Positions 12,822 to 29,355 of a DNA stretch of 29,355 bases are shown piece after piece. Position 1 is the first letter of the stretch, and every line of letters starts with the position of its first letter. The stretch is from the IMG/VR virus record IMGVR_UViG_2541047722_000019; one strand, 5' to 3'. The notes under the pieces were generated by a model that saw only the letters and a program-made list of their open reading frames with translations, was not told the origin of the DNA and did not search any database. The translations under genes and the position numbers were made by a program. Source of the DNA: a virus (lineage: Duplodnaviria > Heunggongvirae > Uroviricota > Caudoviricetes).

Positions 12822-13360
12822 GATACCACCCCCAGAATTTCCCGGCGCAGTGCCTGTACGGCTTCCGCAGAGAGCCCGCCCTTACGGGCAATTTTCTCGG
12901 CGGCAGCGGCAGCACGTTCAACCCTCTCTCTGACTTCTGCCTGATAGCGCTTGAGGTTGACCGAGGCGCGGGTCAGTGTGGCGATATTTTTTGAAGCCGT
13001 TGCCAGCAGTTTTGCCCGGGCGAAGGGATCGTCGTTTTCCCGCGACTCCTGCAGGCGCATCAGGATATCCGTCATTTCGGTCTGGACGAGGGTTATCAGC
13101 CCGGCTGAACGGTCATCAGGATCGTCTCCGGCCTCCCGGGCAAGCAGACGCGCTGCCTCGGTTGCCGCCCGCACCCGGGCCAGTTGCTGCTCCATTTTGT
13201 AGCCAAACCGCTGCAGGGAAGAGCGGGTGATGCTGTACCCCTTTTCCTTCAACAGACTTTCAAGCTCTGCATAGCCGGTGAAATTATTCTCCGTCAGTGC
13301 CCGCTCAAGCCAGCGACGGACCTCCTTCGGCAGAGAATCAATGCTGCTGCGACGTCCCAT
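12818..13360 (-). CDS. Putative terminase small subunit (Mu gp27-like by position)
   Basis: Basic/helical protein directly upstream of the large terminase. The track ORF starts GTG at 13366; first ATG is 13360. Confidence 0.55.
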   Translation of the reverse strand: MGRRSSIDSLPKEVRRWLERALTENNFTGYAELESLLKEKGYSITRSSLQRFGYKMEQQLARVRAATEAARLLAREAGDDPDDRSAGLITLVQTEMTDILMRLQESRENDDPFARAKLLATASKNIATLTRASVNLKRYQAEVRERVERAAAAAEKIARKGGLSAEAVQALRREILGVVS

Positions 13361-13362
13361 AA

Positions 13363-13674
13363 TCACTCACTCCAGTATTTTTCCGGGCGGGCAATACCGG
13401 GGCCGCATTCCACGGTGTATTCCACAATATCCACACCAAGGCGACTCAGATCGGCAAACCAGTCACCGGAAGGCCTCTTCTCCAGTTCCACCATCTTGCG
13501 ATCTGCCAGGTAATCAAGCTCACGGCGCAGCTCCAGTTGCGTGGTGTCCGGGTAGATGGCGCGGGACACTTCCAGCAGCAGCGTCTCGCTGGCGGTATAA
13601 GGGCGGGTTTTGTTCAGGGCAACCAGCAGACTCCAGCGCAGGGATTCGCGGCGTACCCGGGTAATATCGACCAT
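13363..13674 (-). CDS. Hypothetical protein
   Basis: 103 aa; ATG overlaps upstream stop; between lysis cassette and terminase genes. Confidence 0.4.
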   Translation of the reverse strand: MVDITRVRRESLRWSLLVALNKTRPYTASETLLLEVSRAIYPDTTQLELRRELDYLADRKMVELEKRPSGDWFADLSRLGVDIVEYTVECGPGIARPEKYWSE

Positions 13675-14000
13675 TATTGACCTCCGGTATTGCGGTACTG
13701 CTGTACCACTTCCAGTTTGTTGTAGAGCGCGTCCAGTTTGGCCTCGATGACTGTCTGGCCACGGATATAATCCTCGCGACGGACATAATTCAGCGGTAAA
13801 TCCGCTTTAAATCGCATAAATTCTTTTTCCAGTTCGCCCCAGTTGGAGGCGGACTGTTGCAGGGCCTGCTCAAGGGAGGCGAATCGTGCCGCCTGGCGTT
13901 CTTCTGTTTTACTGAACAACCATTTGGCGAGCCCTCCCACAAACCCCATGAAGGTGAGCAAAAAACTCACCACCGTCCAGAATTCAACCTGCAGTGTCAT
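13674..14000 (-). CDS. Membrane-anchored coiled-coil protein (possible lysis accessory)
   Basis: 108 aa with N-terminal hydrophobic segment FWTVVSFLLTFMGFVGGLAKWLF then a helical region; GGAAGGA upstream of ATG; immediately after the spanin pair. Confidence 0.4.
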   Translation of the reverse strand: MTLQVEFWTVVSFLLTFMGFVGGLAKWLFSKTEERQAARFASLEQALQQSASNWGELEKEFMRFKADLPLNYVRREDYIRGQTVIEAKLDALYNKLEVVQQYRNTGGQ

Positions 14001-14650
14001 TTCTGTAATCCTTCCCGTTCATCCAGTAGCGCGTTTATCTGGTTTCGCCAGCGACGACATTGCCCTGCGTTGTCGATGATGTTGGCAAGGACGTCAAGCT
14101 GGGAGACACCCGAATTGCGTAACCGGGCGTCAGCGGTTTCAGGTTGCCCGGTCGCTGCGCCAGTGCCGGTGCCAGCGGCGGCAACTGAGTCTGAATGACC
14201 GGTGTCGACGGATGCGTTGTCGTATCCGAGTGCGGCGTTGTACTGGCGCACGAAACCGCGAGTAAACACGCACTCAATGGGATGGCTCTTACCTTTTTCA
14301 TCAATCCAGCGCTGTGTGACATCGTTAATTTGCCCCTGTAGTTGTTTGTTCTGGTCCTCCAGTTGAGCAATCTGCTCAAGATAACCAGCTTCAGCCCGTT
14401 GCCCGGCGGCTACCTGCTCCTGATAACGCTCAGACCATGCGCGCAACGCCGCCACCTCACGCCGGGCCTGTTCTGCCCGGTATCCGTCAAAATCCGCCTG
14501 CAGGCGGCTGAGCGCCGCCTGACCGTCAGCGGAGGCCCGGTCGTGGCCTGTGCTGTATCCCAGCCACCAGATCGCCAGCAGGAAGGTGTTCAGGAGAATG
14601 GCCAGCATAATGACCCGCCACGGCAGCGACCGTAACTTACGTACCCACAC
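13997..14650 (-). CDS. i-spanin (Rz-like)
   Basis: Short basic N-terminus then TM (RKLRSLPWRVIMLAILLNTFLLAIWWLGY), followed by a long Q/A/E-rich coiled-coil. GTG 14650 has GGGGAGGGG upstream; in-frame alternatives are ATG 14752 and ATG 14608. Confidence 0.6.
   Translation of the reverse strand: MWVRKLRSLPWRVIMLAILLNTFLLAIWWLGYSTGHDRASADGQAALSRLQADFDGYRAEQARREVAALRAWSERYQEQVAAGQRAEAGYLEQIAQLEDQNKQLQGQINDVTQRWIDEKGKSHPIECVFTRGFVRQYNAALGYDNASVDTGHSDSVAAAGTGTGAATGQPETADARLRNSGVSQLDVLANIIDNAGQCRRWRNQINALLDEREGLQK
14035..14301 (-). CDS. o-spanin (Rz1-like lipoprotein) embedded in the i-spanin gene
   Basis: Alternate frame wholly inside 13997..14650. Lipoprotein signal MKKVRAIPLSACLLAVSC followed by a Pro/Thr/Ser-rich periplasmic domain. 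Confidence 0.6.
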   Translation of the reverse strand: MKKVRAIPLSACLLAVSCASTTPHSDTTTHPSTPVIQTQLPPLAPALAQRPGNLKPLTPGYAIRVSPSLTSLPTSSTTQGNVVAGETR

Positions 14651-15374
14651 AGCTTGCCCCTCCCCATGAGAGATAACGCGGGGCCAGCGTGAACAGGATG
14701 CGCTGGGGATAATGACGGTTCTCCCGCCAGCTGGCAGTGCTGCGTCCGGCATTCACCGTGGCGACATGACCAAACCAGCGGGTGCTGTCCAGCCCTTTTT
14801 GTGATGCAAGCCGCCTGTCCCGCTGTACCCAGCCCAGACCACCGTTATAGCCCGACAGTGTCATGGCCATACGCTCGCAGTCACTGGCGGCGCTGACGCG
14901 CTGCCACAGCCAGCGGTCATAGCTGACCAGCGCCCGGATGGCCCATGCCGGATTAAATGGCTCACGGCTGTTAAGCCCCGGCATCAACTGACTTATCCAG
15001 TCGGCGGTGGCGGGCATGAACTGCGCCAGTCCCTGAGCGCCAACCGGCGAGATCGCATCAGGTCGCCAGCCGCTTTCCTGATGCAGTTGCGCAGCGAAAT
15101 CAGCCACCGGCGCAGACAGTCCCCATTCAAGCCGGGCATTACGGATCACATCATCGCGATACTGCAGCGCTGCCTGCGGAGGCTGCGCTGCGCGGGCCTG
15201 ACTGAAGAAGCCGCCACACCAGAGCAACATTGCGACAAAGAATACCCGTGCCATATGAACCAGAAAGGTCCCGGCGCGGACTGACAGGCGTTCGGTTCTG
15301 ATGAAGACCCTAAAGGCTTCGAAAGCCAGTTTCAGGGACATGCATACAATCCAGGTGATCTGCGGCCAGTTCAT
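14637..15374 (-). CDS. Endolysin, lytic transglycosylase with N-terminal signal or SAR-like segment
   Basis: Family-1 transglycosylase motif HQESGWRPDAISPVGAQGLAQFMPATA. Hydrophobic N-terminal segment MARVFFVAMLLWCGGFF. True start may be ATG 15254 (M41) rather than 15374. Confidence 0.75.
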   Translation of the reverse strand: MNWPQITWIVCMSLKLAFEAFRVFIRTERLSVRAGTFLVHMARVFFVAMLLWCGGFFSQARAAQPPQAALQYRDDVIRNARLEWGLSAPVADFAAQLHQESGWRPDAISPVGAQGLAQFMPATADWISQLMPGLNSREPFNPAWAIRALVSYDRWLWQRVSAASDCERMAMTLSGYNGGLGWVQRDRRLASQKGLDSTRWFGHVATVNAGRSTASWRENRHYPQRILFTLAPRYLSWGGASCVGT

Positions 15375-15376
15375 GA

Positions 15377-15727
15377 TTAAAGCCCCATCGCAACAGCCAG
15401 ACAGACCGCTGCAACAATCAGTGCACGGCGGATTAACGCAGCAGAAAACACCAGGTGAAGGCCGGTCTGTACCGGGAAACGCCCATCAGCCATCAGCCTG
15501 TCGTCATGTTTCAGGTACTGACCGGGACGGGCTTTGGGGAAGAGCGAACGGTCAAGCCAGTAACCCAGCACTGCTGCCAGCGTGATGAGTGCCAGCTTGT
15601 AGATCACAACAGGCAACTGCTGTGGCGAGACCAGAGCGATGGTGCCCAGCAACAGCACTGAGGTCAGCAGCCAGCCGCTGAGGCGAGGTTTTTTAACAGG
15701 GGGAATGAATTTTTTCAGGTTTTTCAT
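15377..15727 (-). CDS. Holin-like membrane protein (first late cistron)
   Basis: Three predicted hydrophobic helices. ATG 15727 has GGAG 6 nt upstream; the track ORF extends to GTG 15760. Sits directly upstream of the endolysin gene. Confidence 0.45.
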   Translation of the reverse strand: MKNLKKFIPPVKKPRLSGWLLTSVLLLGTIALVSPQQLPVVIYKLALITLAAVLGYWLDRSLFPKARPGQYLKHDDRLMADGRFPVQTGLHLVFSAALIRRALIVAAVCLAVAMGL

Positions 15728-15857
15728 GTGTGTCTCCTTGTCTGGTGGAGACAGCATCACAAATACAGGGCGCGAAGGATTTTAAAGCGCGTTAAGAGAG
15801 CCGGGGATACGGGATGTGCAGGATAAACGATGAATTATTCACAGAGGAGAATACGAT
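15728..15857. promoter_or_regulatory. Divergent promoter region (late operon leftward, cargo operon rightward) with RBS-overlapping inverted repeat
   Basis: 130-bp gap between divergent starts 15727 (-) and 15858 (+). Perfect inverted repeat TGTCTCC(9)GGAGACA at 15731-15753, whose one arm is the GGAG ribosome-binding site of the late gene. Confidence 0.4.
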
Positions 15858-17386: not shown

Positions 17387-18151
17387 ATGAAAATGAAGAC
17401 ATTACCCATCGTTCCATGGATTGGTGGCAAACGTCGCCTGGCAAAACACATCCTGCCGCTGTTTCCGGCGCATGAATGTTATGTGGAGCCGTTTTGTGGG
17501 GCAGCAGCGCTCTATTTTCTTAAGACACCCGGCAAGATCGAAGTCATCAATGATATCAACGGTGAACTGGTGAATCTGTACCGGGTGGTAAAGCATCACC
17601 TGGAAGAATTTGTCCGCCAGTTCAAATGGGCGCTGGTCAGCCGTCAGATCTACAAATGGCTGCAGATCACCCCGGAAGAAACACTGACGGATATCCAGCG
17701 TGCGGCACGGTTCTACTACCTTCAGAAGCAGGCGTTTGGCGGCAAGGTGGCAGAGCACAGCTTCGGTACCTCCACCACATCCCCGCCACGCTTCAACCTG
17801 CTGCGTATTGAAGAAGAACTGTCAGCAGCACACCTGCGGCTTTCCAGAACAGTCATAGAACACATGGACTGGCAACAGTGCATTGAGCGTTATGATCGTC
17901 CGCACACACTGTTCTACTGCGACCCACCGTACCTGGGTACGGAAGGCTATGGTGTGGATTTTCCTGAAGGGAACTACTCGCGGCTGGCAGAGCTGGCCCG
18001 GTGCATCAGAGGAAAAATGATAATTTCGGTGAACGATATCCCACAGATGCGCGAGGTGTTCACTGGACTGAACATACAGACAGTGAACATCAACTACAGT
18101 CTGGCGGGGAAATCTACGCCGCGCCGTGAACTGGTAATCTGCAACTTCTGA
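17387..18151 (+). CDS. dam: N6-adenine DNA methyltransferase, Dam family (orphan, no adjacent restriction gene)
   Basis: N-terminal WIGGKRRL and VEPFCGAAALYF (SAM-binding motif I) plus FYCDPPY catalytic motif. 254 aa, close to E. coli Dam in size and motif order. Confidence 0.85.
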   Translation: MKMKTLPIVPWIGGKRRLAKHILPLFPAHECYVEPFCGAAALYFLKTPGKIEVINDINGELVNLYRVVKHHLEEFVRQFKWALVSRQIYKWLQITPEETLTDIQRAARFYYLQKQAFGGKVAEHSFGTSTTSPPRFNLLRIEEELSAAHLRLSRTVIEHMDWQQCIERYDRPHTLFYCDPPYLGTEGYGVDFPEGNYSRLAELARCIRGKMIISVNDIPQMREVFTGLNIQTVNINYSLAGKSTPRRELVICNF

Positions 18152-18181
18152 AACAAAACCGGAAAGCACAATGCTTTCCGG
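18151..18181 (-). terminator. Intrinsic terminator for the repressor transcript
   Basis: Perfect 10-bp stem CCGGAAAGCA / TGCTTTCCGG with 3-nt loop, followed on the minus strand by TTTTGTTT. Lies 87 nt after the repressor stop. Confidence 0.5.
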
Positions 18182-18267
18182 TAAACCAAACAACTTCCAC
18201 TATGTCACTGGCGATGTTTTCTGAAAGCATCCAGATCAACCACCTGTCCTTTGTGTCCAGGTCAAAA

Positions 18268-18606
18268 TCAGCCTGCGAGTTTGCTTGGTTTGGGTTGAAT
18301 GAAGACTTTGCCGACCTCAAGAATTGCCCTCCGTTGTTCGGGGCTCATTTCGTCGAATGCATCCATTAACTCTTTCTTTTCTTGTGACACATAAGGTGCA
18401 ACAACAGGCTGACTCCGCACCCCAGTAACTACATACAAAATATCTACACCGATTTCTGATAGTGCAGATAACTGCACTGCAGTAGGAGAAGTGCGATCTT
18501 TTTCCCAATCAATGAAAGTTCTCTTTGCCACACCTATAGCATCAGCCAACCCTTGCTGTGTAAGAGATAGACGCTCTCTTTCTTCTTTAATACGTAACCC
18601 GATCAT
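18268..18606 (-). CDS. Prophage repressor, HTH XRE family
   Basis: MIGLRIKEERERLSLTQQGLADAIGVAKRTFIDWEKDRTSP is a classic XRE helix-turn-helix. The track ORF starts with GTG inside the divergent ner-like gene; ATG 18606 is the likely start and has no obvious SD (possibly leaderless). Confidence 0.7.
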   Translation of the reverse strand: MIGLRIKEERERLSLTQQGLADAIGVAKRTFIDWEKDRTSPTAVQLSALSEIGVDILYVVTGVRSQPVVAPYVSQEKKELMDAFDEMSPEQRRAILEVGKVFIQPKPSKLAG

Positions 18607-18706
18607 GTGAGTTTTTCTGCACTCTTTAAGTTGACTGGTGAGGTAATCTGCACCATAATCTATCACACATAAGGCAAACATCATTGCATCAACAAAGGAG
18701 ACAACG
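18607..18706. promoter_or_regulatory. Switch region: early promoter and candidate operators
   Basis: Near-consensus sigma70 promoter on the plus strand: TTGACT (18631-18636), 17 bp, CATAAT (18654-18659). Direct repeats TCTGCAC at 18616-18622 and 18647-18653, the second inside the spacer. Confidence 0.45.
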
Positions 18707-18895
18707 ATGACTGCAGAACAAGTCAAAGCTCTCTTCCGCCAGCGCGGGATCACTTTCACCCGCTGGGCAGAAGAAAACGGCTACAACCGCAATGAGGTAT
18801 ACCGCGTTCTCAATGGGCAGACCAAAGCCCGTTACGGTAAATCCCATGAAATCGCCGTGAAGTTGGGGCTGAAATCAACAGCTCAGGCAGCCTGA
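18707..18895 (+). CDS. Ner/Cro-like small DNA-binding regulator
   Basis: 62 aa, AGGAG 6 nt upstream, first gene of the early operon divergent from the repressor. Residue pattern RQRGITFTRWAEENGYNRNEVYRVLNG parallels Mu Ner. Confidence 0.55.
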   Translation: MTAEQVKALFRQRGITFTRWAEENGYNRNEVYRVLNGQTKARYGKSHEIAVKLGLKSTAQAA

Positions 18896-18947
18896 AGATT
18901 TTGAGTCTTTGTAAAAGGTTATCACATATCGCAAAAGAGGTATGCAG

Positions 18948-19256
18948 ATGAGTAAGACGAATGTTTCAAGCTCCGGCAGTCGCATCCTCCGGGTACTCAA
19001 AGCGCTGCGCGGTCATGCCCTGAACGGTATTTCCAACGGTGAACTGGCGGCAGCACTGCACGAGTCACCGGCAAACATCAACCGGGCACTCAACACCCTC
19101 ATTGAAGAAGGGTTGGCCCTGAAACTGGAAAACGGGCGTTTCGCGCCGGGCATCCAGTTACTGCAGATCGCTATGGCCCACAGTAACGAGATGGCACGTG
19201 CACAGGATCGCATTAACGAAATCAACCAACGTGTCATTTCAGGTAGTCGTTTGTAA
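18948..19256 (+). CDS. Winged-helix-like small DNA-binding protein
   Basis: Segment RILRVLKALRGHALNGISNGELAAALHESPANINRALNTLIEEGL looks like a wHTH. Start taken at the second ATG (18948), which has better SD spacing to AAGAGG. Confidence 0.45.
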   Translation: MSKTNVSSSGSRILRVLKALRGHALNGISNGELAAALHESPANINRALNTLIEEGLALKLENGRFAPGIQLLQIAMAHSNEMARAQDRINEINQRVISGSRL

Positions 19257-19266
19257 GGAGTAATAA

Positions 19267-20178
19267 ATGGGACGCACCAAATCACCGATTAACACTGAAC
19301 TGAACGCCGAGGTACCGCTGTCGGATGATCTCAATGTCAGTCTGAACGCCATGACACAGCATCGTATGGAGATCATGCAGCAGTTTGGCGATGGTCAGCC
19401 CTATGAGCGTGATCGCATAGTTCATGAGGCTCGGTTTTATATGGCACAGAGCGCTGAGGCCATGCTGGAAGCAGGTAAACGACTTATTATTCTCAAAGAA
19501 AATGAACCTCACGGGGACTTTGTTGGAATTGTAGAAGAACAACTTGGTCTGCATGTGCGCGCAGCACAACGAATGATGAAAGCATCTTTGAAATACCTTT
19601 CACCAAAACTAGAGCCAAAAGCGACAACGTTGTCGCTTTTAGGTAAGGCAAAATTATTTGAACTTGTTGCTGAAGATGACGACGACCTTGCTGAACTGGC
19701 CGACGGTGGCACAGTTGCCGGACTGACGCTTGACGATGTTGATCGCATGTCAGTACGTGAATTGCGTCAGGCCCTGCGCGAAGCGCGCGAAACCAACGCA
19801 GCACAACAGCGCGTACTCGCCGACAAAAATGAAAAAATAGACTCACTCTCCACCAGACTGGAGAAGAAATCCCGTATTCAGCCACCTGAGCCTGATGAAG
19901 AGGTGAAGAAACTGCGGGCAGAAGTGACCGCGTTAGCGGTTGAGGCGGAATCTGCCATCGCCGTTCGACTGTCCAGCGCTTTTGAGACGCTGTGCGCATA
20001 TTGTGCTGAAAACATGATTGATACCCCCAGAGACTTCATGGCAGGCCTGGTCTGTCAACTGGAAAGCACAGCGCGTAGCCTGCGCTCCACATTTGACCTG
20101 CCGGACGAGCCAACAGGCAATGCAGCGCCTTCATGGCTGACTGAGCCGACGCCACAGATTAACGGGCTGGAGGCATAA
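19267..20178 (+). CDS. Hypothetical early protein, acidic with coiled-coil segments
   Basis: 303 aa, AAGGAG 6 nt upstream; stop 3 nt before the transposase ATG. No motif recognised. Confidence 0.5.
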   Translation: MGRTKSPINTELNAEVPLSDDLNVSLNAMTQHRMEIMQQFGDGQPYERDRIVHEARFYMAQSAEAMLEAGKRLIILKENEPHGDFVGIVEEQLGLHVRAAQRMMKASLKYLSPKLEPKATTLSLLGKAKLFELVAEDDDDLAELADGGTVAGLTLDDVDRMSVRELRQALREARETNAAQQRVLADKNEKIDSLSTRLEKKSRIQPPEPDEEVKKLRAEVTALAVEAESAIAVRLSSAFETLCAYCAENMIDTPRDFMAGLVCQLESTARSLRSTFDLPDEPTGNAAPSWLTEPTPQINGLEA

Positions 20179-20181
20179 CCA

Positions 20182-21951
20182 ATGAATGCTGCCCTGACTG
20201 AACGACTGGTTTATGTCGCCCGCGCGGCACGTGACGCGGGGCATGGTAAACGCGGCGCAGTATACGACGCTGCCTGTGCTGAACTTGGCATGTCCCGCGC
20301 CACTCTGCTGCGCAGGCTGAAGGAGGTATCTGTGACTGATAAACGCAAAAAACGCGCCGATGCCGGGCGCAGCGCCCTGACCCGCGACGAAGCCGCGCTG
20401 ATATCTGCCACACTGCGTGAGGCCACCCGCAAGAACGGTAAGCGTCTCTATTCCATCGCGGATGCAGTGGAAACCCTGCGGGCTAACGGCTTTATATCCG
20501 CAGGCAGAACAGATGAAACCACCGGTGAGTTTTTCCCGTTGTCCGAAGATGCCATCAGCCGAGCCCTGCGTAACTATGGCCTGCACCCGGAACAACTGGA
20601 TGCCCCTGCGCCGCATACCGAAGTGGCCAGTCTGCATCCCAATCATGTCTGGCAGATTGACGCCTCACTCTGCACGCTTTACTACCTGAGCAATGGACAT
20701 AAAGGGCTGCAGGTGATGGACAGCGCGAAGTTCTACAAGAACAAGCCCGCTAACCTTGCCCGTATCGCCAGTGACCGCGTGTGGAGTTACGAGATTACCG
20801 ACCATGCCAGCGGCTGGATTTACGTTGAGTATGTGACGGGCGCGGAATCAGGTGAGAACCTGTGTTCTGTGCTTATCAACGCCATGCAGGAGCGTGGCGG
20901 CGCAGACGTGCTGCACGGTGTGCCGAAAATACTCTATCTCGACCCCGGCTCGGCAAACACCGCGGGTATGACGAAAAACATGTGCCGCTCACTGGGCATC
21001 GACCTGATAGCGCACAAGCCGCATAACGCCCGCGCCACCGGACAGGTGGAAAAGGCGCGGGACATTATCGAACGCAAGCTGGAGCCGGGTCTGAAGTTCC
21101 GGCCGGTTCACAGTCTGGAAGAACTCAACGCGCTGGCCGCGAAATGGCGCAGCCACTTTAACGCCACGGCTGTTCACAGCCGCCACGGTAAAACCCGCAC
21201 GGATATCTGGCTGAAGATTACTGCTGAGCAGCTGAAAAAAGCGCCTTCCGTTGAGGTATGTCGTGAACTGGCTGTGGCGGCACCAGAACTCCGCAAAGTC
21301 ACGCCAAAACTTCGTGTCTCGTTCCGGGGCACTGAATTTGACGTATCAACGGTACCGGGCGTACTGGTTGGTGAAAAACTGATGATTACCCGTAACCCGT
21401 GGCGCAGCGATGTGGCACAGGTGGTTCTGACCGGTGAGGACGGCCACGAGACGTTCTTCCTGGTCGAAGAGGTCAGAAAGAACGAGTTTGGCTTTGCTGA
21501 AGGCGCGGCGGTATTTGGCGAAAGTTACAAAGCCCTGCCGGAAACCCCGGCGCAGATGGCGGCAAAAGAAACCGAAGCGCTGGTCACCGGTACAGACAAC
21601 GCCGCAGATGCAGCTGCCGCACGCAAGGCGAAGGCGCTGCCGTTCGGCGGGCGGCTTGACCCGTATAAACATATCGACGACACCACACTTCCGGCCTATA
21701 TGCCGAAGCGTGGTCAGGCCTCTGACGTACGCGGGCCGCGCACTGAACAACGTCCCATGACTTATGTGGAGGCCGCGAAAGCCCTGCGCGATAAGTTCAG
21801 CGCCAACGGCTTTACCTGGACGCCGGAACATTACCGCCAGTTAACGGCACAGTATCCGGACGGCGTACCGGAAGCCGCACTGGATGAAGTCATGGCCACG
21901 CTGACCACGCCGGCCCGCAGCAGCGTTATCAGTATTGTTAACGGCAACTGA
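20182..21951 (+). CDS. DDE transposase (retroviral-integrase fold)
   Basis: 589 aa. Catalytic triad candidates D in HVWQIDAS, D in LYLDPGS and E in GQVEKARD, with exactly 35 residues between the second D and the E. GGAGG SD. Confidence 0.85.
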   Translation: MNAALTERLVYVARAARDAGHGKRGAVYDAACAELGMSRATLLRRLKEVSVTDKRKKRADAGRSALTRDEAALISATLREATRKNGKRLYSIADAVETLRANGFISAGRTDETTGEFFPLSEDAISRALRNYGLHPEQLDAPAPHTEVASLHPNHVWQIDASLCTLYYLSNGHKGLQVMDSAKFYKNKPANLARIASDRVWSYEITDHASGWIYVEYVTGAESGENLCSVLINAMQERGGADVLHGVPKILYLDPGSANTAGMTKNMCRSLGIDLIAHKPHNARATGQVEKARDIIERKLEPGLKFRPVHSLEELNALAAKWRSHFNATAVHSRHGKTRTDIWLKITAEQLKKAPSVEVCRELAVAAPELRKVTPKLRVSFRGTEFDVSTVPGVLVGEKLMITRNPWRSDVAQVVLTGEDGHETFFLVEEVRKNEFGFAEGAAVFGESYKALPETPAQMAAKETEALVTGTDNAADAAAARKAKALPFGGRLDPYKHIDDTTLPAYMPKRGQASDVRGPRTEQRPMTYVEAAKALRDKFSANGFTWTPEHYRQLTAQYPDGVPEAALDEVMATLTTPARSSVISIVNGN

Positions 21952-21961
21952 GGAGGGAAAC

Positions 21962-23128
21962 ATGCTGGTACTGAAGCAGCAACTGAAAGAAGCCCGTATT
22001 CCACAGGCGGTGGTGGCGAGAGCTGTCGATGTTTCTGAGGCCACGCTGGCCCAGATTGTGAATCATAACGCGTGGCCCCGCACCAGCCCCGGAGAAGTGC
22101 GCCGGCGTCTTGCGTCCTGGCTGGAAAGTCAGGGGATTGATACAACGAAGAGTTTTGATGCTGTACAGGGCGCGGCCACGCCCCGTACAGCGGGTACCAC
22201 AGATAAAACGAGCCTCAGTGAGGAAGAGAATATGTTACTCAAAAAACAGGTGTTATTTCCAGCAACCAAAAAAGCGTTTGGTCTTTTCCGTGACCCGTTC
22301 GCCGACGAAGCCATGCAGGGTTCTGATGATGTGTTCACCACCCCGGATATTCGCTACGTGCGTGAGGCGTTGTACCAGACAGCCCGTCATGGTGGGTTTA
22401 TGGCCGTCATCGGTGAGTCCGGTGCGGGTAAATCCACGCTGCGCCGCGACCTGACTGAACGTATCAACCGCGAGAATGCGCCGGTAATTGTTATCGAGCC
22501 ATACATCATCGCTATGGAAGACAACGATGTGAAAGGGAAAACCCTGAAGGCAGCAGCGATTGCCGAAGCCATTATCAGTACCATCGCACCACTGGAAAGC
22601 ATCAGACGCAGTCAGGACGCCCGCTTTCGCCAGTTGCATCGCGTCCTGAAAGACAGCAGCCAGGCGGGGTTCAGCCACGTTCTGGTGATTGAGGAGGCCC
22701 ACAGTCTGCCCATTCCGACACTGAAACACCTCAAACGCTTTTTTGAGCTGGAGTCCGGTTTCAAAAAACTGCTGTCCATCGTGCTGATTGGCCAGCCGGA
22801 ACTGGCGACAAAACTGTCTGAACGCAATATGGAAGTCCGTGAAGTCGTTCAGCGCTGTGAGGTGGTCGAACTTCTGCCTCTGGACAATAACCTTGAAGAG
22901 TTTCTGACGTTCAAACTGCAACGGGCCGGTAAACAACTGACGGACATTATGGACGCCAGCGCAGTGGATGCCATACGTGCCCGCCTGAGCAATCCGGGAA
23001 GTCATCGTAAAAATATGGTCAGCCTGCTGTATCCGCTGGCCGTCAGTAACCTGGTAATAGCCGCCATGAATCTGGCCGCTGAAATCGGGGTTCCACAGGT
23101 CAACGCTGACGTTGTCAAAGGGGTTTAA
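21962..23128 (+). CDS. Transposition ATPase (MuB / TniB-like)
   Basis: Walker A GESGAGKST and Walker B-like HVLVIEEAH. ATG 21962 with GAGGAGGGA upstream (the track ORF starts at TTG 21935). Immediately downstream of the transposase. Confidence 0.8.
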   Translation: MLVLKQQLKEARIPQAVVARAVDVSEATLAQIVNHNAWPRTSPGEVRRRLASWLESQGIDTTKSFDAVQGAATPRTAGTTDKTSLSEEENMLLKKQVLFPATKKAFGLFRDPFADEAMQGSDDVFTTPDIRYVREALYQTARHGGFMAVIGESGAGKSTLRRDLTERINRENAPVIVIEPYIIAMEDNDVKGKTLKAAAIAEAIISTIAPLESIRRSQDARFRQLHRVLKDSSQAGFSHVLVIEEAHSLPIPTLKHLKRFFELESGFKKLLSIVLIGQPELATKLSERNMEVREVVQRCEVVELLPLDNNLEEFLTFKLQRAGKQLTDIMDASAVDAIRARLSNPGSHRKNMVSLLYPLAVSNLVIAAMNLAAEIGVPQVNADVVKGV

Positions 23129-23130
23129 TA

Positions 23131-23400
23131 ATGAAATCCACCACAGGTATCAACCAGCAAATCAGCAAAGTGCAGTCAGCCATTATGGCGCTTAAGGCGA
23201 CGAACACGGATGTACAAAGCATCACCATCAGGGGTAACAAACCTGTCATCCGCGTTTCCCGGAGTGCGCATTGCATGCGCATGCTTGAGCAGGGAAAGGC
23301 CTGTTATCTGTATACCGGTCATGACCACAGGGGACATTTCCGTCAGGGCGTTTTCGAACTGCACGGCTGTCGCGTCGTGTGGCCGGAATCTTTGTGGTAA
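23131..23400 (+). CDS. Hypothetical early protein
   Basis: 89-aa ORF starting 3 nt after the B-like gene stop. Confidence 0.4.
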   Translation: MKSTTGINQQISKVQSAIMALKATNTDVQSITIRGNKPVIRVSRSAHCMRMLEQGKACYLYTGHDHRGHFRQGVFELHGCRVVWPESLW

Positions 23401-23427
23401 TCAGCACAACAGGAGGAGTCATAAAAT

Positions 23428-23958
23428 ATGGCAAAAAGTACAAAAGGGGCAAAACGTATCAAAGCCGCAGCAGCACTCTGGGTGCCGGGGACACGCGAAG
23501 AGGTCATTGAGGGAATCAGACTGCTTGGTGACGCGCAACGTGAACTGGTCAGGGCTGAAACAGAAATGAATGACACCATTGGCGACATCACCGCACGTTA
23601 TGCCCCGCTCACCGAGAGCCTGAAAAAACGCATGGCCGAACTGCAGTCCGGTATTCAGACATGGTGTGAGGCACACCGTGATGAACTGACCGGCAACGGG
23701 AAGGTGAAGTTCGCTAACCTCACCACCGGCGAGGTGCAGTGGCGAAACCGTCCGCCGTCAGTCAGTATCCGTGGGGCGGATAATGTTATTGAATTACTGA
23801 GACGTCTGGGGCTTGAGCGCTTTATCCGTGTAAAGGAGGAAATAAATAAAGACGCCATCCTGAATGAAAAGGACGCCGTGAAAAATATTCCCGGTATTAC
23901 CATAAAAAGTGATATTGAGGATTTTTCAATAATTCCTTTTGAGCAGAATGTGCAGTAA
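23428..23958 (+). CDS. gam: Gam, host-nuclease inhibitor (Ku-like DNA end-binding protein)
   Basis: 176 aa with extended identity to Mu Gam as I recall it, including TEMND, WCEA.RDELT, RPPSVSIRG, LGL.RFIR.K.EINK and the C-terminal GIT.KS.IEDFSIIPFEQ. Confidence 0.9.
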   Translation: MAKSTKGAKRIKAAAALWVPGTREEVIEGIRLLGDAQRELVRAETEMNDTIGDITARYAPLTESLKKRMAELQSGIQTWCEAHRDELTGNGKVKFANLTTGEVQWRNRPPSVSIRGADNVIELLRRLGLERFIRVKEEINKDAILNEKDAVKNIPGITIKSDIEDFSIIPFEQNVQ

Positions 23959-24054
23959 AAACAGCATATAAGCTATTTAAAACAGCCTTTTCTTTTTTAT
24001 TCCGGCATCAGCGCCGTGGGCTTCTGCACGCCGGAAACAGAGGAGAATTAAATC

Positions 24055-24249
24055 ATGATATTTAAATGTATTCAGTGCGAGAGGGATATAACAGCCCTGC
24101 GTTTTCACAGCGCCATCGCCGTGATGTCCGGTAAGTACCACGTACCTGCAGTACGCGTCACCCTGGTCTGTCCGTACTGCAGTCAGCATTTTTCGGCAGA
24201 CGTGCCCGTCATGGAATTCTCCCGCCCTGACAGGGAGGACTCGCAATGA
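24055..24249 (+). CDS. Small zinc-ribbon-like protein
   Basis: 64 aa with two CxxC pairs (CIQC ... CPYC); GAGGAG upstream. Confidence 0.45.
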   Translation: MIFKCIQCERDITALRFHSAIAVMSGKYHVPAVRVTLVCPYCSQHFSADVPVMEFSRPDREDSQ

Positions 24250-24518
24250 TTACCCCACAGGAAGCACGACAGCGCACCCGAACCCTTGTTGAACACTATG
24301 TCAACGAGTGTGAATGCCGCGACCTCACCGATGTGAAGCACGTCCTGACGGCGCTAATCAGCATGACCGCTCAGGCCATTGTGGCGACCAACGGAAAGGC
24401 GGCTGCCCTGCAGGTACTGGTGAACACACTCACCCACACGGCAGAGCACGATGTGCCGTACCGGATGGAAACCACTGCAGAAGGCGGCCTGAACATCACC
24501 GTCGACCGGAAACACTGA
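24246..24518 (+). CDS. Hypothetical early protein
   Basis: 90 aa; ATG overlaps upstream stop (ATGA); GGGAGGA upstream. Confidence 0.45.
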   Translation: MITPQEARQRTRTLVEHYVNECECRDLTDVKHVLTALISMTAQAIVATNGKAAALQVLVNTLTHTAEHDVPYRMETTAEGGLNITVDRKH

Positions 24519-24527
24519 GGGCGCGGC

Positions 24528-24833
24528 ATGACACGGAACACCGAACTCACCCGCACCGCCCTCTACCGTCTGGCCCTGCAGCGTTTCGGGCCGGACGCAC
24601 AGGCCCTGAAACTGACAGAAGAGGCCGCTGAACTGGCGGCCAGTGCCGCCCGCAACCTGAACGGACAGGGCAGCGAAAGTGACCTCGCGGCAGAGCTGGC
24701 AGACGTGGAAATCATGACAGAGCAGCTGCGCCTTCAGGGAATGGACCGGCTGATTGACTTCCACAAACAGAAAAAACTGGAACGCCTTGCCGCACGGCTG
24801 GGCGTCATGTACACCGGAGATACTGAACAATGA
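24528..24833 (+). CDS. MazG-like nucleotide pyrophosphohydrolase
   Basis: 101 aa, all-helical, with the MazG metal-binding pattern EEAAE ... AELADVEIM. Confidence 0.6.
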   Translation: MTRNTELTRTALYRLALQRFGPDAQALKLTEEAAELAASAARNLNGQGSESDLAAELADVEIMTEQLRLQGMDRLIDFHKQKKLERLAARLGVMYTGDTEQ

Positions 24834-25513
24834 CAGACCAGGATAAACACATTGAGAAACTGAAAAAGTTGCTGGCGCTGGCCGCATCCGGCAACCCTCA
24901 CGAGGCCGCTCTGGCACTGCGCCGTGCCCGTAAACTGATGGATGTTCACGGCATCACACATTCCGACATCGCCATGAGTGATATTGATGAAACCATCAGT
25001 CACTACTGGCCGACAGGCAGCCTCCGTCCACCGCGCTACATGCTGGGCCTGATGAACATCATCCGCGAGGCATTTGGTGTTAACTCCATCATTCACCCCG
25101 GCACATATCCGGGTGTGGGGTTCTACGGCAACCGGGAACGGGCTGCACTGGCTGCGTACACCTGGGAAGTGCTGGCCCGCCAGCTGAAAAAGGCGCGTCA
25201 GCAATATATCAGCGCACAGAACAAAAGAATAAAAACTGCCACCCGTACCAGCCGTGGTGACCAGTTTGCTGAAGGCTGGGTGCTGGCCGTTATCAGTGAA
25301 ATACAGTCCTTCGCCCTGACCGATGACGAACGTGAACTGATGCAGCAGTGGCTGGAACATAAATACCCGCAGACGCAAACCACCAGGGCGCGTAAACCGG
25401 GAAGAAGCCGCAATGGCGACGCCTCGCGCTATGCGGGGTTTCTTGAAGGGCAGAACGTCAGACTGCACCGCCCGGTCAGTGGGCAGGAACAACAGAAACT
25501 GGAGGCCAGATGA
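24830..25513 (+). CDS. Hypothetical early protein with helical N-terminal domain
   Basis: 227 aa; ATG overlaps upstream stop (ATGA). N-terminus EKLKKLLALAASGNPHEAALALRRARKLM. Confidence 0.5.
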   Translation: MTDQDKHIEKLKKLLALAASGNPHEAALALRRARKLMDVHGITHSDIAMSDIDETISHYWPTGSLRPPRYMLGLMNIIREAFGVNSIIHPGTYPGVGFYGNRERAALAAYTWEVLARQLKKARQQYISAQNKRIKTATRTSRGDQFAEGWVLAVISEIQSFALTDDERELMQQWLEHKYPQTQTTRARKPGRSRNGDASRYAGFLEGQNVRLHRPVSGQEQQKLEAR

Positions 25514-25740
25514 TTACGCTATCAGGTAAAAGCCGGAAATTAAAAGCCTGCCGAATATCTGCCAGATACCTTTTTGCCCGCGCCTTTTTTAAGAACGTCA
25601 GGCCGGGGATCACAATTGGTGTTATTGCCGGACGCGAACAGGTTGAAAAATACATGTCAGGTGCATGGTGGAATAACGACCCTGTCATTGCTGCCCGTAA
25701 TATTCATATCAGTTGGGGGGATATTCAGAATGACGGCTGA
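25510..25740 (+). CDS. Hypothetical small protein
   Basis: 76 aa; GGAGG upstream; ATG overlaps upstream stop (ATGA). Confidence 0.4.
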   Translation: MITLSGKSRKLKACRISARYLFARAFFKNVRPGITIGVIAGREQVEKYMSGAWWNNDPVIAARNIHISWGDIQNDG

Positions 25741-25945
25741 ATCTGTTGTATGTGCCCTGTTCTGGTATTGTTTTGTCGGTTGGTGTACTGCTGAACTGCA
25801 CCGCCGTTCAGGGTTTTATTCACGTTACAGTGGTGCTGGCTACTGGATTAGCTGGTCGGTGATGTTCCTGTGCTGGCCTGTGGCGCTTCCTTTATATGTC
25901 GATTATATCGGTGGCGCAGGTAAAAGGAGCAACGATGATGACTAA
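25730..25945 (+). CDS. Small membrane protein
   Basis: 71 aa from ATG 25730 with two hydrophobic helices (VVCALFWYCFVGWC and WISWSVMFLCWPVALPLYV). The track ORF 25574..25945 has a non-protein-like N-terminal extension. Confidence 0.4.
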   Translation: MTAESVVCALFWYCFVGWCTAELHRRSGFYSRYSGAGYWISWSVMFLCWPVALPLYVDYIGGAGKRSNDDD

Positions 25946-26387
25946 ACAACGTCTTATCCAGCTCATTCATATTGCCCGTAATGAACTGGGTATGGATGAA
26001 GACACCTACCGCCAGATGTTACAGGGGCTGACCGGTAAAGCCTCAACCAAAGGAATGGATACCACACAACTAAACTGCGTGCTGGAATCCATGAAAAGGA
26101 AAGGCTTTCGCGTTAAGCCTGCCGGAAAAGCCAGCTCCGGTTTACCGCTGGATAACCATCCGCAGTCCAGGAAAATCCGTGCGCTATGGCTTGAAATGGC
26201 TGCTGCCGGCATTGTTCGTGACCGTTCAGAAAATGCATTAGCGCGGTGGATCAAGCGGGAAACGGGCATCAGCGCCCTGCGCTGGCTCAGTACTGAACAG
26301 GCAAGCAGTGTTATTGAGAAACTGAAGAAGTGGCAGCGCAGAGCTGCGGGAGTCAAACATGAGCGACCTGAATCAGTTTCGAAGTAA
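25934..26387 (+). CDS. GemA-like early protein
   Basis: ATG with AAGGAG upstream; immediately upstream of the Mor-like gene, as gemA is in Mu. Confidence 0.55.
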
Positions 26388-26757
26388 AGGGCCGGAACTC
26401 CTGGTGGAGCTGGCACAGCATACCTCTGAGACCGTTCGCGAGATTATTGATATTGAGCCCGCAATTGCCGACCAGATTGGTCAGGCCGTCGCGAACCGAA
26501 TGATGCAGGTCTGGGGCGGGCAAAACGTTTATTTCCCGATGGGCATGGTATGGAAGGTCAGTCAGCGCGACCGGGAAATCTTCAGGGAGTTTAACGGACG
26601 CAACCACCACGAACTGGCCCGCAAGTTTGGTGTTTCGCTTCAGTGGGTCTACAGCGTGGTTAAGCGGGTCAGAAAAGAAGAACTGGATCGGATGCAGGGC
26701 AGGTTGTTTGATGAAGATCTGCCAGAGGAGACGAAAGACGTTAACAAATCCAGATAA
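26359..26757 (+). CDS. mor: Mor/C-family transcriptional activator
   Basis: 132 aa; GGQNVYFP and FNGRNHHELARKFGVSLQWVYSVVKRVR match the Mor/C C-terminal DNA-binding region. Last early cistron. Confidence 0.8.
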   Translation: MSDLNQFRSKGPELLVELAQHTSETVREIIDIEPAIADQIGQAVANRMMQVWGGQNVYFPMGMVWKVSQRDREIFREFNGRNHHELARKFGVSLQWVYSVVKRVRKEELDRMQGRLFDEDLPEETKDVNKSR

Positions 26758-26801
26758 TTCCTGCTTGTTAAAGTCCTTTCAAAAATCTCCTTATTGTATA
26801 A

Positions 26802-26835
26802 AAGCACGGTAGACCCCTTACCGTGCTTTTTTTAT
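26802..26835 (+). terminator. Rho-independent terminator ending the early operon
   Basis: Perfect 10-bp stem AAGCACGGTA / TACCGTGCTT, 7-nt loop, followed by TTTTTTTAT. Confidence 0.65.
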
Positions 26836-26871
26836 GCTCTCTCTTTAGTATTCAGGATGCAGGGAGAAAAT

Positions 26872-27504
26872 ATGTTTGACGTTTCGTTGTTAAATCTGCC
26901 ATGGGCAACACTGGTGACCCTGACCAGTGGCTATATTGGGTATTTTATTGCGAATGTGGGACTGAAGGATCACCACAAGCCCATTGAGGTGACTTTTTCT
27001 TCGCTGATTTTTGGCCTGACAGCAATGATGGCTTACCAGGCTGTTATGTGGGCAGGTCTGAATGCCTGGCTGGCAACACCACCAGCACTTCTGTGTGCCC
27101 TTACATGCGGTGCGTGGTGGCGCAGGTACGGTCGCAAATGGATGTACAGATTACTGTGGAATAATGATATTTCATGGTCTGACGATACCAGCTCAGCATG
27201 GCAGGCAATGTTTGATCAAACAGGCTTCAGCGTTACCGAGGTCAGAGTGATTCTTCGCGATGGTTCCGGTATGATGTCACGGCTGCCAGGGAACTTTGAA
27301 GAGTGGCCTAACGGTCCGTTTACCCTGGGGAATAAAGGCGATATGGTTCTTTACGTCACGCACAGCAGCCCTTCAGGCAGTAACGAATGGGAAGAGTATA
27401 AAGGCGTGGTTGATAAGTACTGGGGAGCTCTGGCAACCTATATTCCAGCAGATCAGATTGCCAGAGTGGAGATCAGGCGCGTTCGTGCAACGAACGATGA
27501 ATGA
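26872..27504 (+). CDS. Membrane protein with three N-terminal helices and a soluble C-terminal domain; end-proximal cargo candidate
   Basis: ATG 26872 with GGGAG 7 nt upstream; the track ORF from 26794 would start inside the terminator. Located after the terminator, as the last gene before the prophage end. Confidence 0.55.
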   Translation: MFDVSLLNLPWATLVTLTSGYIGYFIANVGLKDHHKPIEVTFSSLIFGLTAMMAYQAVMWAGLNAWLATPPALLCALTCGAWWRRYGRKWMYRLLWNNDISWSDDTSSAWQAMFDQTGFSVTEVRVILRDGSGMMSRLPGNFEEWPNGPFTLGNKGDMVLYVTHSSPSGSNEWEEYKGVVDKYWGALATYIPADQIARVEIRRVRATNDE

Positions 27505-27507
27505 TGT

Positions 27508-27669
27508 TTATTTTTTCCCTGGGGCAGGGGCTGCCGGCATAGTGGTTTTATTGGCAGAGGAAGACGATTCTCCTTTTCTACCGGAATCGCGCTCGAACGT
27601 CACGATGTGCTTGCTTTTGGGCTTTTCTGAGTAATCCAGGCTATCATGCTTATTGTTTTGAGTAGTCAT
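27508..27669 (-). CDS. Possible 53-aa hydrophilic ORF convergent with the membrane protein gene
   Basis: ATG with AGGA upstream; MTTQNNKHDSLDYSEKPKSKHIVTFERDSGRKGESSSSANKTTMPAAPAPGKK. Short and partly low-complexity, so could be spurious. Confidence 0.2.
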   Translation of the reverse strand: MTTQNNKHDSLDYSEKPKSKHIVTFERDSGRKGESSSSANKTTMPAAPAPGKK

Positions 27670-27819
27670 TGGAATCATCCTTTTTGTTGCGGGTCATGTT
27701 TCAGCAAACTCGATTCTAAGTTGCCAGGAAGGATGATTTCAATGCCCGACTTATCTATCGTATAGCGGAAAAGAATTTCAGTTCTGTTCACCAGAACCCA
27801 TGTTAACCCACTCCAATTC

Positions 27820-27865
27820 GTTATTTATCTCACGGATCCCCCTTCATTTATCTCATGTCTGATCA
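27820..27865. repeat. Prophage terminus with direct repeats (candidate transposase-binding sites)
   Basis: ATTTATCTCA occurs at 27823-27832 and 27846-27855, with a related CTTATCTATCG at ~27750. On the host-facing strand the element end reads 5'-TGATCAGACATGAGATAAATG. Confidence 0.45.
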
Positions 27866-29355
27866 CTGCCGTGAGCAGAGGCGCGCAGGATCGACCGTAG
27901 TTGTGTGGTAAACAACGACGCGTATTCTTCATAAATACGCACCGCGCGATAACCGAGGAACGGGTTAGCTTCTGCCGGAATGTTCAGATAATCAACGGGT
28001 TTATCACCGCCAATGTCCATAGTGCGCACAATAATGCTGCGTCCGTTGGCAGACTCCAGCGCCTGACAAAAAATGTTGTACAGCTCGCTTTCGCCCGGTG
28101 CACTGGTGCGATCCATATAGAGCATTTCAGTGCGGAACAAACCAACGCCTTCCGCACCATTGCCGAATGCGGCCTGCGCTTCCACGGAGTGAGCGATGTT
28201 AGCGGCAATTTCAATGCGGATACCGTCAGCGGTACGCGCTTGCTGGGTCAGCCAGACACGCTGTTGCTCACGCAGAGCGTCCTGTACGCGGGCTTCTTGC
28301 TGATAATAACGGGCCACGGATTCCCCTGGCTCAACCACAATCGCCCCTGCGTTGCCGTCGATATAAATCGTCTGATGCTGCCACGGAGTAAGGGCAGCAA
28401 TATCCACACCTACCAGCGTCGGAATGTTGAACGAACGGGCAAGGATCACAGTATGTGAGGTGGTGCCGCCACTTTTCAGTAACAGACCTTTGAGATGATT
28501 TTTATCCAGTTCGAGGAACTGGCTGGGGGTCAGTTCATCAGCCATACAAATGGCGGGCTGCGTCAGTTTGCCCGGTGCCGGGAAGCGTTGCTCACCGTAG
28601 ATTTGCTGGAGTAACTGGAAGCAGACGTCGCGTACGTCCAGGGCACGTTCTTGCAGGTAGCTGCTGCTGGAACGGGCGAACTCTTCGCAAAAGTGATTCG
28701 CACTGGCAACAATCGCTTCGGCGCAGCTTAATCCGGCGCTGACACCTGCCAGTAAATGTTCGCGCAGGGAAGTATCGCCAGCCAGGGATCGGTGCGCTTC
28801 CAGAATCGCGCTGGTAGCACCGTCGCTATCCAGCAGACGAAACTCTATGTTTTTCAGTACCAGCGTCAGACCGTTTTCCAGTGCGGATTGTTCGGCGTCA
28901 ACGCCTTTGGCTGCGGGAAGATTACCCAGCGCATTGAGATCTAAAGAAGAGATCGGCGTCAGAATGCCGCCTGCGCTACCACTGCACACGGTGCGAGCAC
29001 GGATAATTTGCGGATTCAGATTGGTCAGTGAAACCGGCAGTGGTTCCAGTTCGTCAGATTTTACTTCCGCCAGCGGTGCGTCGCAGTGGGGGAATTCATC
29101 GCGCAGCCATTGGCTTAAACGCTGGTACGCTTCCTGTTCGTCGGCCCCGGAAATCAGTAACTGGCAGTTATCGCCCACCAGCGTATCGGTGCCAATCAGC
29201 GCAAGGGCGCTTTTGGCGTTGCCCTTGCGGTCAGTGCGCAGGTTATGCCACTCAATTTGTGATGAAAAAGTATTACACAGCGTTTCAACGTGGCTTGCCG
29301 GACGCGCATGGACGCCGTTAGGTAGCTCACAAATAAATTCCACAATCAGGGCCAT
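27866..29355 (-). pseudogene. ptsA: Host PTS multiphosphoryl transfer protein (HPr-Enzyme I fusion), 5' ~1.5 kb only, interrupted by prophage insertion
   Basis: HPr signature GVHARPASH at the N-terminus, EI phospho-His motif GGTTSHTVILARSFNIPTLVG, and PEP-utilising motifs GAEGVGLFRTEMLYMDR and NPFLGYRAVRIY. The reading frame ends at ...LRASAHGSDQT*, mid-domain. Symbol is from recollection of the E. coli PtsA/FrwA N-terminus; a FryA-type paralogue is not excluded. Confidence 0.6.

Follow-up and report, generated by a model that had tools for sequence, protein, structure and literature searches.

Convergently transcribed type I toxin-antitoxin (TA) loci such as txpA/ratA and bsrG/SR4 are found in prophages, and Cap15 of the cyclic oligonucleotide-based antiphage signaling system (CBASS) is an abortive-infection membrane effector that combines transmembrane (TM) helices with a small cytoplasmic ligand-binding barrel. 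Disordered proteins are known to dock on barrels of the LSm and SH3 type through short linear motifs, and in the MscS core an Sm-like β-domain comes after three TM helices. Phage morons that encode inner-membrane exclusion proteins are likewise known, for example HK97 gp15 ('The moron comes of age', PMC3594210). A proteogenomic study of Pseudomonas stutzeri ATCC 14405 reported three new small proteins, rich in proline, whose genes immediately follow the DUF6338 gene Pstu14405_RS12030 (MVSS…TAPPPPKK, …KAPPPPPKRDSK and …SAPPPPPKKGG, with 85, 114 and 44 spectra, respectively), which the authors considered unique to that species and for which they proposed no function (PMC10433244). Here, we describe a pair of genes in a stretch of 29,355 nucleotides (nt) of Caudoviricetes DNA (IMG/VR record IMGVR_UViG_2541047722_000019; the whole stretch is referred to as the window, and compared loci by L numbers), namely a gene for an inner-membrane protein of 210 amino acids (aa) and a convergent gene for a 53-aa microprotein, which lie beyond mor, the last gene of the early operon.

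The pair is best explained as a self-contained two-gene moron, carried by a BcepMu-like transposable prophage in the interval from the early-operon terminator to the right prophage end. Because of where such units occur and the usual roles of inner-membrane morons, the most likely reading is that of a prophage-expressed membrane effector and its cognate microprotein regulator, acting in superinfection exclusion or abortive infection, although this reading is tentative and has somewhat less than an even chance. The moron character follows from presence and absence: DNA related to gemA-mor was found in 642 of 5426 complete Escherichia coli genomes and any allele of the membrane gene in 132, and in about four in five related E. 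coli prophages mor leads straight to the phage end. This empty slot, in which mor is followed by 163 base pairs (bp) and then by the terminal repeats, occurs in a common prophage of the sequence type 131 (ST131) kind, in strain DEF10 and in phage PhiKM, and was confirmed in L026, L037 and PhiKM; prophages with and without the cassette diverge at a breakpoint near 26717, within the 3′ end of mor. E. coli has four or more alleles of the pair, and the natural lysogen ABU 83972 carries a copy with 99.8% identity. It stands after mor in 32 of 38 IMG/VR loci and in diverged Mu-like prophages of Citrobacter, Serratia, Salmonella, Symbiopectobacterium, Arsenophonus and Pantoea, and Mu-like prophages of other Enterobacterales with the pair in the same place have transposases that are only 45–60% identical. 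Elsewhere, it is inserted between the Phage_connect_1 and Phage_HCP genes (head-tail connector and head closure) of HK97-like prophages (L033, L080), within a siphovirus tail module (L077) and, in Bradyrhizobiaceae, beside a serine recombinase and a tyrosine integrase, while further settings are after a phage-type Dam methylase gene and adjoining DUF4145 and DUF4411/M78 genes. The pair thus behaves as a moron, being optional and inserted in otherwise unrelated temperate phages. An earlier reading of the letters of the window (hereafter the sequence-only reading) had placed the membrane gene among typical lysogenic-conversion or superinfection-exclusion cargo, and had named presence or absence at this slot as one of the checks, with conservation in all relatives and a virion or transposition role as a contrary outcome; the distribution found here favors dispensable cargo over such a role.

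Two candidates for alternative cargo in the slot were rejected, as a 114-aa ORF (open reading frame) of PhiKM lies beyond the phage terminus, has a weak MacB-like match and is probably packaged host DNA, and a 109-aa ORF of KP12 is a fragment of Mu gp27 that probably comes from the other end of a permuted record. In one E. coli allele of the pair, an additional 78-aa ORF (WP_001610543.1) is located between mor and the terminator (L027 2170–2406, L028 3326–3562). In Burkholderia phage phiE255 (L032 4151–6553), different cargo follows mor, namely gp31, which is annotated as membrane-associated, and genes on the opposite strand, one of them for a formyltransferase-like protein; Bcepmuviruses may thus generally accommodate cargo at the post-mor end.

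The convergent 53-aa ORF noticed in the sequence-only reading is present and annotated in RefSeq (WP_001571575.1), at a distance of 3 nt from the stop codon of the membrane gene. Relative to an 88%-identical allele it has accumulated 12 synonymous and 6 nonsynonymous changes, giving a ratio of nonsynonymous to synonymous substitution rates (dN/dS) of 0.11, which resembles that of the neighboring membrane gene (0.10, likewise against an 88%-identical allele), and a Serratia pair yields 0.14. A convergent ORF of 33–60 aa, positioned between 38 nt downstream and a 20-nt overlap, accompanies nearly every homolog of the membrane gene, including those of Citrobacter, Serratia, Symbiopectobacterium, Salmonella diarizonae and three further E. 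coli alleles, as well as those of Bradyrhizobium, Afipia, Devosia, a metagenome-assembled genome of the Rhizobiaceae, Allosphingosinicella and five distant IMG/VR contigs. More than 20 loci from two proteobacterial classes retain an open frame that is comparable in length, orientation and tail motif, and an AAGGA-type Shine-Dalgarno (SD) sequence precedes its start in most enteric loci. These comparisons indicate that the 53-aa ORF is a real gene under purifying selection and the partner of the membrane gene, and that the true unit is the pair. That the ORF is short, compositionally simple and without a Pfam match could suggest a chance frame next to a membrane gene that alone is real, yet this is refuted by the comparative data just given, together with a conserved promoter (discussed below) and the detection of similar tails by mass spectrometry in P. 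stutzeri, and it deserves practically no credence. The small ORF is missing in three degraded symbiont copies of the membrane gene, and L035 is without a partner, as the sole nearby ORF is an unrelated one of 82 aa that lies 144 nt downstream.

The microproteins are disordered and hydrophilic, and share an N-terminal M(T/S)xK/Q and a central (S/D)(Y/F)(S/T)xxP(K/R) motif, followed by tails of the PPAPxGKK, PPPSPKKK or VPPPPKK type (PPxPxKK). A search with a profile of the microproteins returned unnamed hypothetical proteins only; both of the inspected neighborhoods of such matches contain a convergent gene of 207–211 aa, which is the partner by length and position only. In the E. coli allele L038 (~3600–3755, minus strand), a 50-aa microprotein gene is unannotated in RefSeq, while its frame, promoter and SD are intact. 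In Bradyrhizobiaceae, where the serine recombinase precedes the membrane gene, a third conserved gene of 156–183 aa without a Pfam match is located directly upstream of the microprotein gene and on the same strand (L020 8802–9272, L011 6789–7313, L014 6791–7342 and L016 6782–7252, minus strand), and outside phages the system may have three components.

A separate membrane gene with its own SD beyond the terminator had been proposed from the letters alone, and the RefSeq coding sequence WP_021522614.1 is an identical call. The AlphaFold2 model built with the family alignment (predicted local distance difference test score, pLDDT, 84) places helices at residues 11–27, 37–60 and 65–97, followed by a poorly defined linker and a β-domain at 119–205 (pLDDT 86–95); of the earlier description, the three N-terminal hydrophobic helices hold, while the soluble domain shrinks from ~130 to about 110–125 residues. 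The lysines and arginines number zero in the N-tail, two in loop 1 (plus two histidines), zero in loop 2 and five in the segment after TM3, so that, by the positive-inside rule, the topology is predicted to be N-out and C-in with the barrel in the cytoplasm. TM1, which carries an NLPW…GYxGY…HHK motif, is the most conserved segment (77% mean pairwise identity) and an insert in the barrel the least conserved (33%). The predicted β-domain has an N-terminal helix and a strongly bent five-stranded antiparallel sheet, as in the Sm/LSm fold, and LSM14 in complex with a 4E-T peptide (6f9w) is among its fold matches.

In sequence databases the membrane protein is widespread and nearly nameless. There are 72 homologs in a set of 5.8 billion proteins, and a profile search of a representative set of 1.84 billion yielded 523 clusters at 50% identity, nearly all of the best 150 of which are ~200–240 aa long with the same architecture. 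Neither protein has a match in Pfam, NCBIfam or PADLOC (the membrane protein of the window has none in Pfam at E up to 1), and in PHROGs only phrog_12870 and phrog_15726, both without annotated function, were matched by the membrane protein and the microprotein, respectively. Sub-threshold matches to Pfam DUF6338 (PF19865) were obtained for 19 of 36 aligned members, spanning TM2/TM3 through the linker, and the best score among the homologs is 25.9 against a gathering threshold of 26.5 bits; because all scores lie under this threshold, the family is best called DUF6338-like and not a member. A search of the Protein Data Bank with the family profile gave no match, the BFVD fold search gave one uncharacterized full-length match, and the longer family members show no informative domain fusion. 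In the literature, no paper on the RefSeq accessions of the pair was found, and DUF6338 is mentioned solely in the proteomics study of P. stutzeri (PMC10433244). A homolog with 30% identity in Synechococcus phage Ssp-JY41 lies at the end of the record, in an uninformative context.

The architecture raises the question of a lysogenic-conversion function unrelated to phages, in which the protein would be a small channel or an envelope-stress factor, for instance a ring assembly loosely analogous to MscS. Three TM helices combined with an Sm-like barrel do recall the MscS core, and the very high conservation of the TM1 motif points to a membrane domain with a function beyond anchoring. However, no structural or sequence match to the TM3, β- or αβ-domains of MscS was detected, and a conflict system accounts better than a housekeeping function for the fast diversification of barrel and microprotein and for a distribution confined almost entirely to phages and mobile islands, which makes such a channel an improbable explanation compared with exclusion or abortive infection.

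The diversification is mosaic. Among nine enteric alleles, microprotein identity shows a Spearman correlation of 0.59 with that of the C-terminal domain and of −0.12 with that of the TM region, and the N- and C-terminal halves of the membrane protein correlate at 0.06. Between the window and L038, the N region is 87%, the C region 62% and the microprotein 33% identical, and the corresponding values are 92, 55 and 28% for L004 and L010, and 86, 95 and 89% for the window and L031. Barrel and microprotein are thus exchanged or diversify as a single block, while the membrane bundle stays nearly constant, and this co-variation fits a cognate interacting pair. The natural alleles in which both are swapped together represent ready-made material for specificity-swap experiments.

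The signals ahead of the membrane gene bear on when it is expressed. The arms of the terminator, AAAAGCACGGTA (26800–26811) and TACCGTGCTTTT (26819–26830), are perfectly complementary and followed by seven T residues, and the RNA is predicted to fold with −19.1 kcal/mol (z = −6.7; none of 200 shuffled sequences was as stable). Ten loci from several genera have a hairpin at this position, with compensatory changes in five of seven consensus pairs, so that the strong terminator which the sequence-only reading had seen closing the early operon after mor stands, with a stem of 12–13 bp in place of 10. As an A-run lies on its 5′ side, it could work on both strands and also halt an antisense transcript. 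Rfam produced sub-threshold matches only, on this hairpin. The spacing between terminator and ATG leaves room solely for a promoter that overlaps the hairpin, and the arrangement TGGATA/TAGACC, 17 nt, TATTCT/TATGCT at 28–36 nt before the ATG ranked first among the candidates in 6 of 11 scanned enteric loci; candidates at a similar position are weaker or lower-ranked in L007–L010, and L004 has none. In the window, the candidate agrees with the consensus at 8 of 12 positions, which is under the threshold of the scanner. The loop sequence of the hairpin is partly conserved while the stem co-varies, and the −10 hexamer directly follows the T-run, suggesting that the hexamers embedded in the terminator may form a weak constitutive promoter of the membrane gene. 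On an HK97-like contig, a hairpin with T-run and a promoter-like TTGAAA-17-GATGAT are again found ahead of the pair. The possibility that the terminator dyad is instead a Mor-binding site of a Pm-like promoter was rejected, as its stem sequence GCACGGTA together with one-mismatch variants shows no enrichment (27 occurrences against 21 expected); the stem has zero further exact copies in the window, and hence is not a shared activator site.

These signals also speak to a role as accessory of the lytic cycle, in which read-through or activator-dependent expression after induction would serve lysis timing, membrane modification for DNA transactions or the blocking of secondary infection. The membrane gene immediately follows the early operon and mor in the same orientation, in siphoviruses it is oriented like the late operon, its own promoter is weak, and its three-TM part weakly resembles class I holins. 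The latter similarities are non-significant (BFVD, E = 0.03–0.6), and a protein of 210 aa with a folded cytoplasmic domain, encoded at the end of the early operon near the terminus and without an adjacent endolysin gene, is unlike a holin. Given in addition that a strong and conserved terminator separates operon and gene, that the terminator stem is not repeated and that most related E. coli prophages lack the gene, a lytic role is considered unlikely.

The microprotein gene has the stronger promoter. This promoter, TTGAAA-18-TAGAAT, is found 37–43 nt from the ATG in the window, L031, L004, L005, L006, L007 and L010, despite the proteins being at most 50% identical. A conserved inverted repeat encloses the promoter, its arms lying over the −35 hexamer and over the SD and start codon of the microprotein gene; the repeat (16–28 nt) is kept with sequence variation in L004, L005, L007, L010 and L031, and persists in the Citrobacter, Serratia, Symbiopectobacterium and Salmonella loci. 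Reading of the spacer between mor and phage end in the empty-slot prophage L026 revealed no matching repeat, no repeat scan having been made there. The inverted repeat could be an operator or an RNA element. Since no terminator fits between the two genes, their transcripts must overlap. With predicted transcription starts near 26845 (plus strand) and 27706 (minus strand), the antisense overlap would span 27504–27669 and may reach the potentially bidirectional terminator at 26800–26830.

Such an arrangement is what a TA-like addiction module would look like, in which the membrane protein is a latent toxin, neutralized by a labile microprotein and/or the antisense-overlapping transcript, and the pair stabilizes its carrier element instead of defending against phages. 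An autonomous two-gene unit in many kinds of mobile elements, a stronger promoter on the small gene, the unavoidable 3′ overlap and a barrel and microprotein that co-vary like cognate pairs are all in line with addiction. On the other hand, no homology to any TA family was revealed (a Cpta_toxin match in 3 of 36 members, E = 0.037, is at chance level), a toxin of 210 aa with a large cytoplasmic domain is atypical for type I systems, and the symbiont loci L008 and L009 retain the membrane-gene frame without the small gene, although these and the fragmented L017 may all be decaying. Addiction therefore has a low probability as a separate explanation, and it overlaps so heavily with abortive-infection models that the two may not be distinct.

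The P. stutzeri locus offers a parallel, as it also combines a membrane protein of ~200 aa with adjacent tiny hydrophilic proline-rich proteins that have PPPPKK-type tails. The mass spectra show that microproteins of the PPPPKK-tailed type are translated, and, as the tails match the motif of the microproteins, the tie between such membrane proteins and PPPPKK-tailed microproteins seems to be general. Homology was considered and dropped, the resemblance being one of composition and tail motif only. Some 14 kb away from its DUF6338 gene and the small genes beside it, P. stutzeri has a well-expressed operon of DUF499, DUF3780, DUF1156-methylase and phospholipase D (PLD)/SNF2-helicase genes (CP036186.1 2642350–2652095; Table S5 of PMC10433244), which looks restriction- or defense-type.

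If the pair serves superinfection exclusion or abortive infection, the following mechanism can be envisaged. The pair would be expressed from the prophage, as the conserved, weak promoter-like hexamers suggest, and the membrane bundle would be the effector, acting at the inner-membrane entry site of incoming phage DNA or killing by permeabilizing the membrane. The cytoplasmic barrel and the microprotein would form a cognate sensing or regulatory module, with the disordered proline tail docking on the barrel, and convergent overlapping transcription from the stronger microprotein promoter would restrain the weakly promoted membrane gene. The net output would be exclusion of other phages or abortive infection to the benefit of the lysogen. 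Several points weigh against this proposal. Without a match in PADLOC, Pfam, NCBIfam or an annotated PHROG, the defense or exclusion role derives from context and architecture only; the candidate promoter of the membrane gene is weak (8/12), and the gene, being co-oriented with the early operon, could be read through into during lytic growth. Linkage in one recombination block alone could produce the co-variation of barrel and microprotein. The small genes of P. stutzeri are three and co-directional, whereas here there is one and it is convergent, and the microprotein profile scores the P. stutzeri small proteins no higher than shuffled controls.

Beyond this locus, DUF6338-type membrane proteins and PPxPKK-tailed microproteins might constitute a two-component conflict system that is widespread in temperate phages and mobile islands and has so far been overlooked, in which a three-helix effector is gated by a hypervariable Sm-like barrel that binds its cognate microprotein, with the ratio of the two set by convergent transcription, and by which other phages are excluded or aborted; this more general proposal is doubtful and offered as a speculation. 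If a defense or exclusion role is true, the pair would represent a new compact family of less than 1 kb, with the 523 membrane-protein clusters mentioned above, carried by Mu-like and HK97-like prophages of E. coli, Salmonella, Klebsiella and rhizobia, and a function would be assigned to a DUF-like family as well as to a class of microproteins that was seen by mass spectrometry but dismissed as species-specific. Regardless of function, the 53-aa ORF, which is usually overlooked or unannotated, is half of a conserved and undescribed two-gene unit.

The surroundings of the pair define the phage type. Virion (late) genes occupy the minus strand of the window over ~15.8 kb (1–15760), while the early operon is on the plus strand (17387–26757) and contains genes for a transposase, a B-like ATPase and gam, a DUF2786 gene, gemA/gp16 and mor. 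Early and late blocks that diverge from a central control region correspond to the layout of BcepMu, as opposed to the co-linear layout of Mu, and the nearest phage records belong to Bcepmuvirus (Escherichia phage PhiKM and the Burkholderia phiE255 group). The sequence-only reading had assumed that the membrane gene took over the slot of the Mu late activator C; since the early operon points toward the genome end, there is no C slot being replaced, and the slot is empty in most relatives. The membrane gene is also not the last gene before the prophage end, as had been thought, this being the 53-aa gene.

The left prophage end lies beyond the window. At the right end, the matching DNA in 114 complete E. 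coli genomes stops at ~27865–27867 (mostly 27865), after ...TCTGATCA, and the host flanks, which include clbG, irp1, yeiB, yfaV and others, are all different and thus reflect random transposition. In the window, the flank (27853–29355, minus strand) is a truncated host gene called ptsP by PGAP, of which 500 codons are left. This gene for an enzyme I-family phosphoenolpyruvate-protein phosphotransferase is core (5426 of 5426 E. coli genomes), and its truncated reading frame extends 13 nt into the phage end, past the junction at 27865. The ATTTATCTCA repeats, which are 23 nt apart, and the TGATCA are invariant across seven diverged Mu-like loci, and empty-slot prophages share the terminal 40 bp; the repeats and TGATCA are probably transposase-binding sites. 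A weak hairpin that faces inward from the phage end may perhaps insulate against read-in from host genes, which is suggested with low confidence. The features are collected in Table 1.

Table 1. Coordinates of the gene pair, its signals and the adjoining prophage end in the window.
Feature	Position	Strand	Evidence or details
mor-family activator gene, last in early operon	26359..26757	+	Pfam Mor E = 1e-43; RefSeq 'Mor transcription activator family protein'
Intrinsic terminator, 12–13 bp stem and T7 run	26800..26836	+	Dyad, folding energy, compensated pairs
Putative weak sigma-70 promoter inside terminator	26810..26838	+	TAGACC (26810–26815, hairpin loop), 17 nt, TATGCT (26833–26838)
Shine-Dalgarno GGGAG of membrane gene	26862..26866	+	5 nt before ATG (26872), direct reading
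210-aa inner-membrane protein gene	26872..27504	+	3 TM and predicted cytoplasmic Sm/LSm-like β-barrel; DUF6338-like; phrog_12870
53-aa hydrophilic microprotein gene, proline-rich lysine-ended tail …PAAPAPGKK	27508..27669	-	phrog_15726; dN/dS
Conserved inverted repeat	27667..27744	.	Arms 27667–27682 and 27729–27744; 16 nt, 94% complementary
Sigma-70-type promoter of microprotein gene	27713..27742	-	TTGAAA, 18 nt, TAGAAT (10/12)
Weak terminator-like hairpin facing inward from phage end	27780..27798	-	7 pairs, T-rich tail
Prophage terminus: two direct ATTTATCTCA repeats and terminal …TGATCA	27823..27865	+	Repeats 27823–27832 and 27846–27855

Compared with the systems introduced above, the pair shares individual features with each of them. 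Like CBASS Cap15, the membrane protein has an N-terminal TM part that would kill or block and a small C-terminal β-barrel that would regulate; in contrast to Cap15, there is no homology, no cyclase or other signal generator is encoded nearby, and the partner is a microprotein rather than a nucleotide signal. With Sm and LSm proteins (LSm, SmAP and Hfq) it has the predicted fold in common, yet the barrel is membrane-tethered and acidic (16 aspartates and glutamates against 10 lysines and arginines), carries a variable insert of 20 residues and shows no detectable Sm1 or Sm2 sequence motif. The txpA/ratA and bsrG/SR4 loci resemble the pair in having a membrane-protein gene with a convergent partner, a 3′ overlap, a stronger promoter on the partner and a prophage location, whereas here the membrane protein has 210 aa with a soluble domain, and the partner is protein-coding and under purifying selection. 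As for the exclusion morons, the pair is likewise optional, preceded by a terminator, equipped with promoter-like signals of its own, situated between conserved phage genes and the source of an inner-membrane protein, but it differs from them in having no sequence or profile similarity to described exclusion proteins, in the folded cytoplasmic Sm-like domain that is predicted for its membrane protein and in its convergent microprotein gene.

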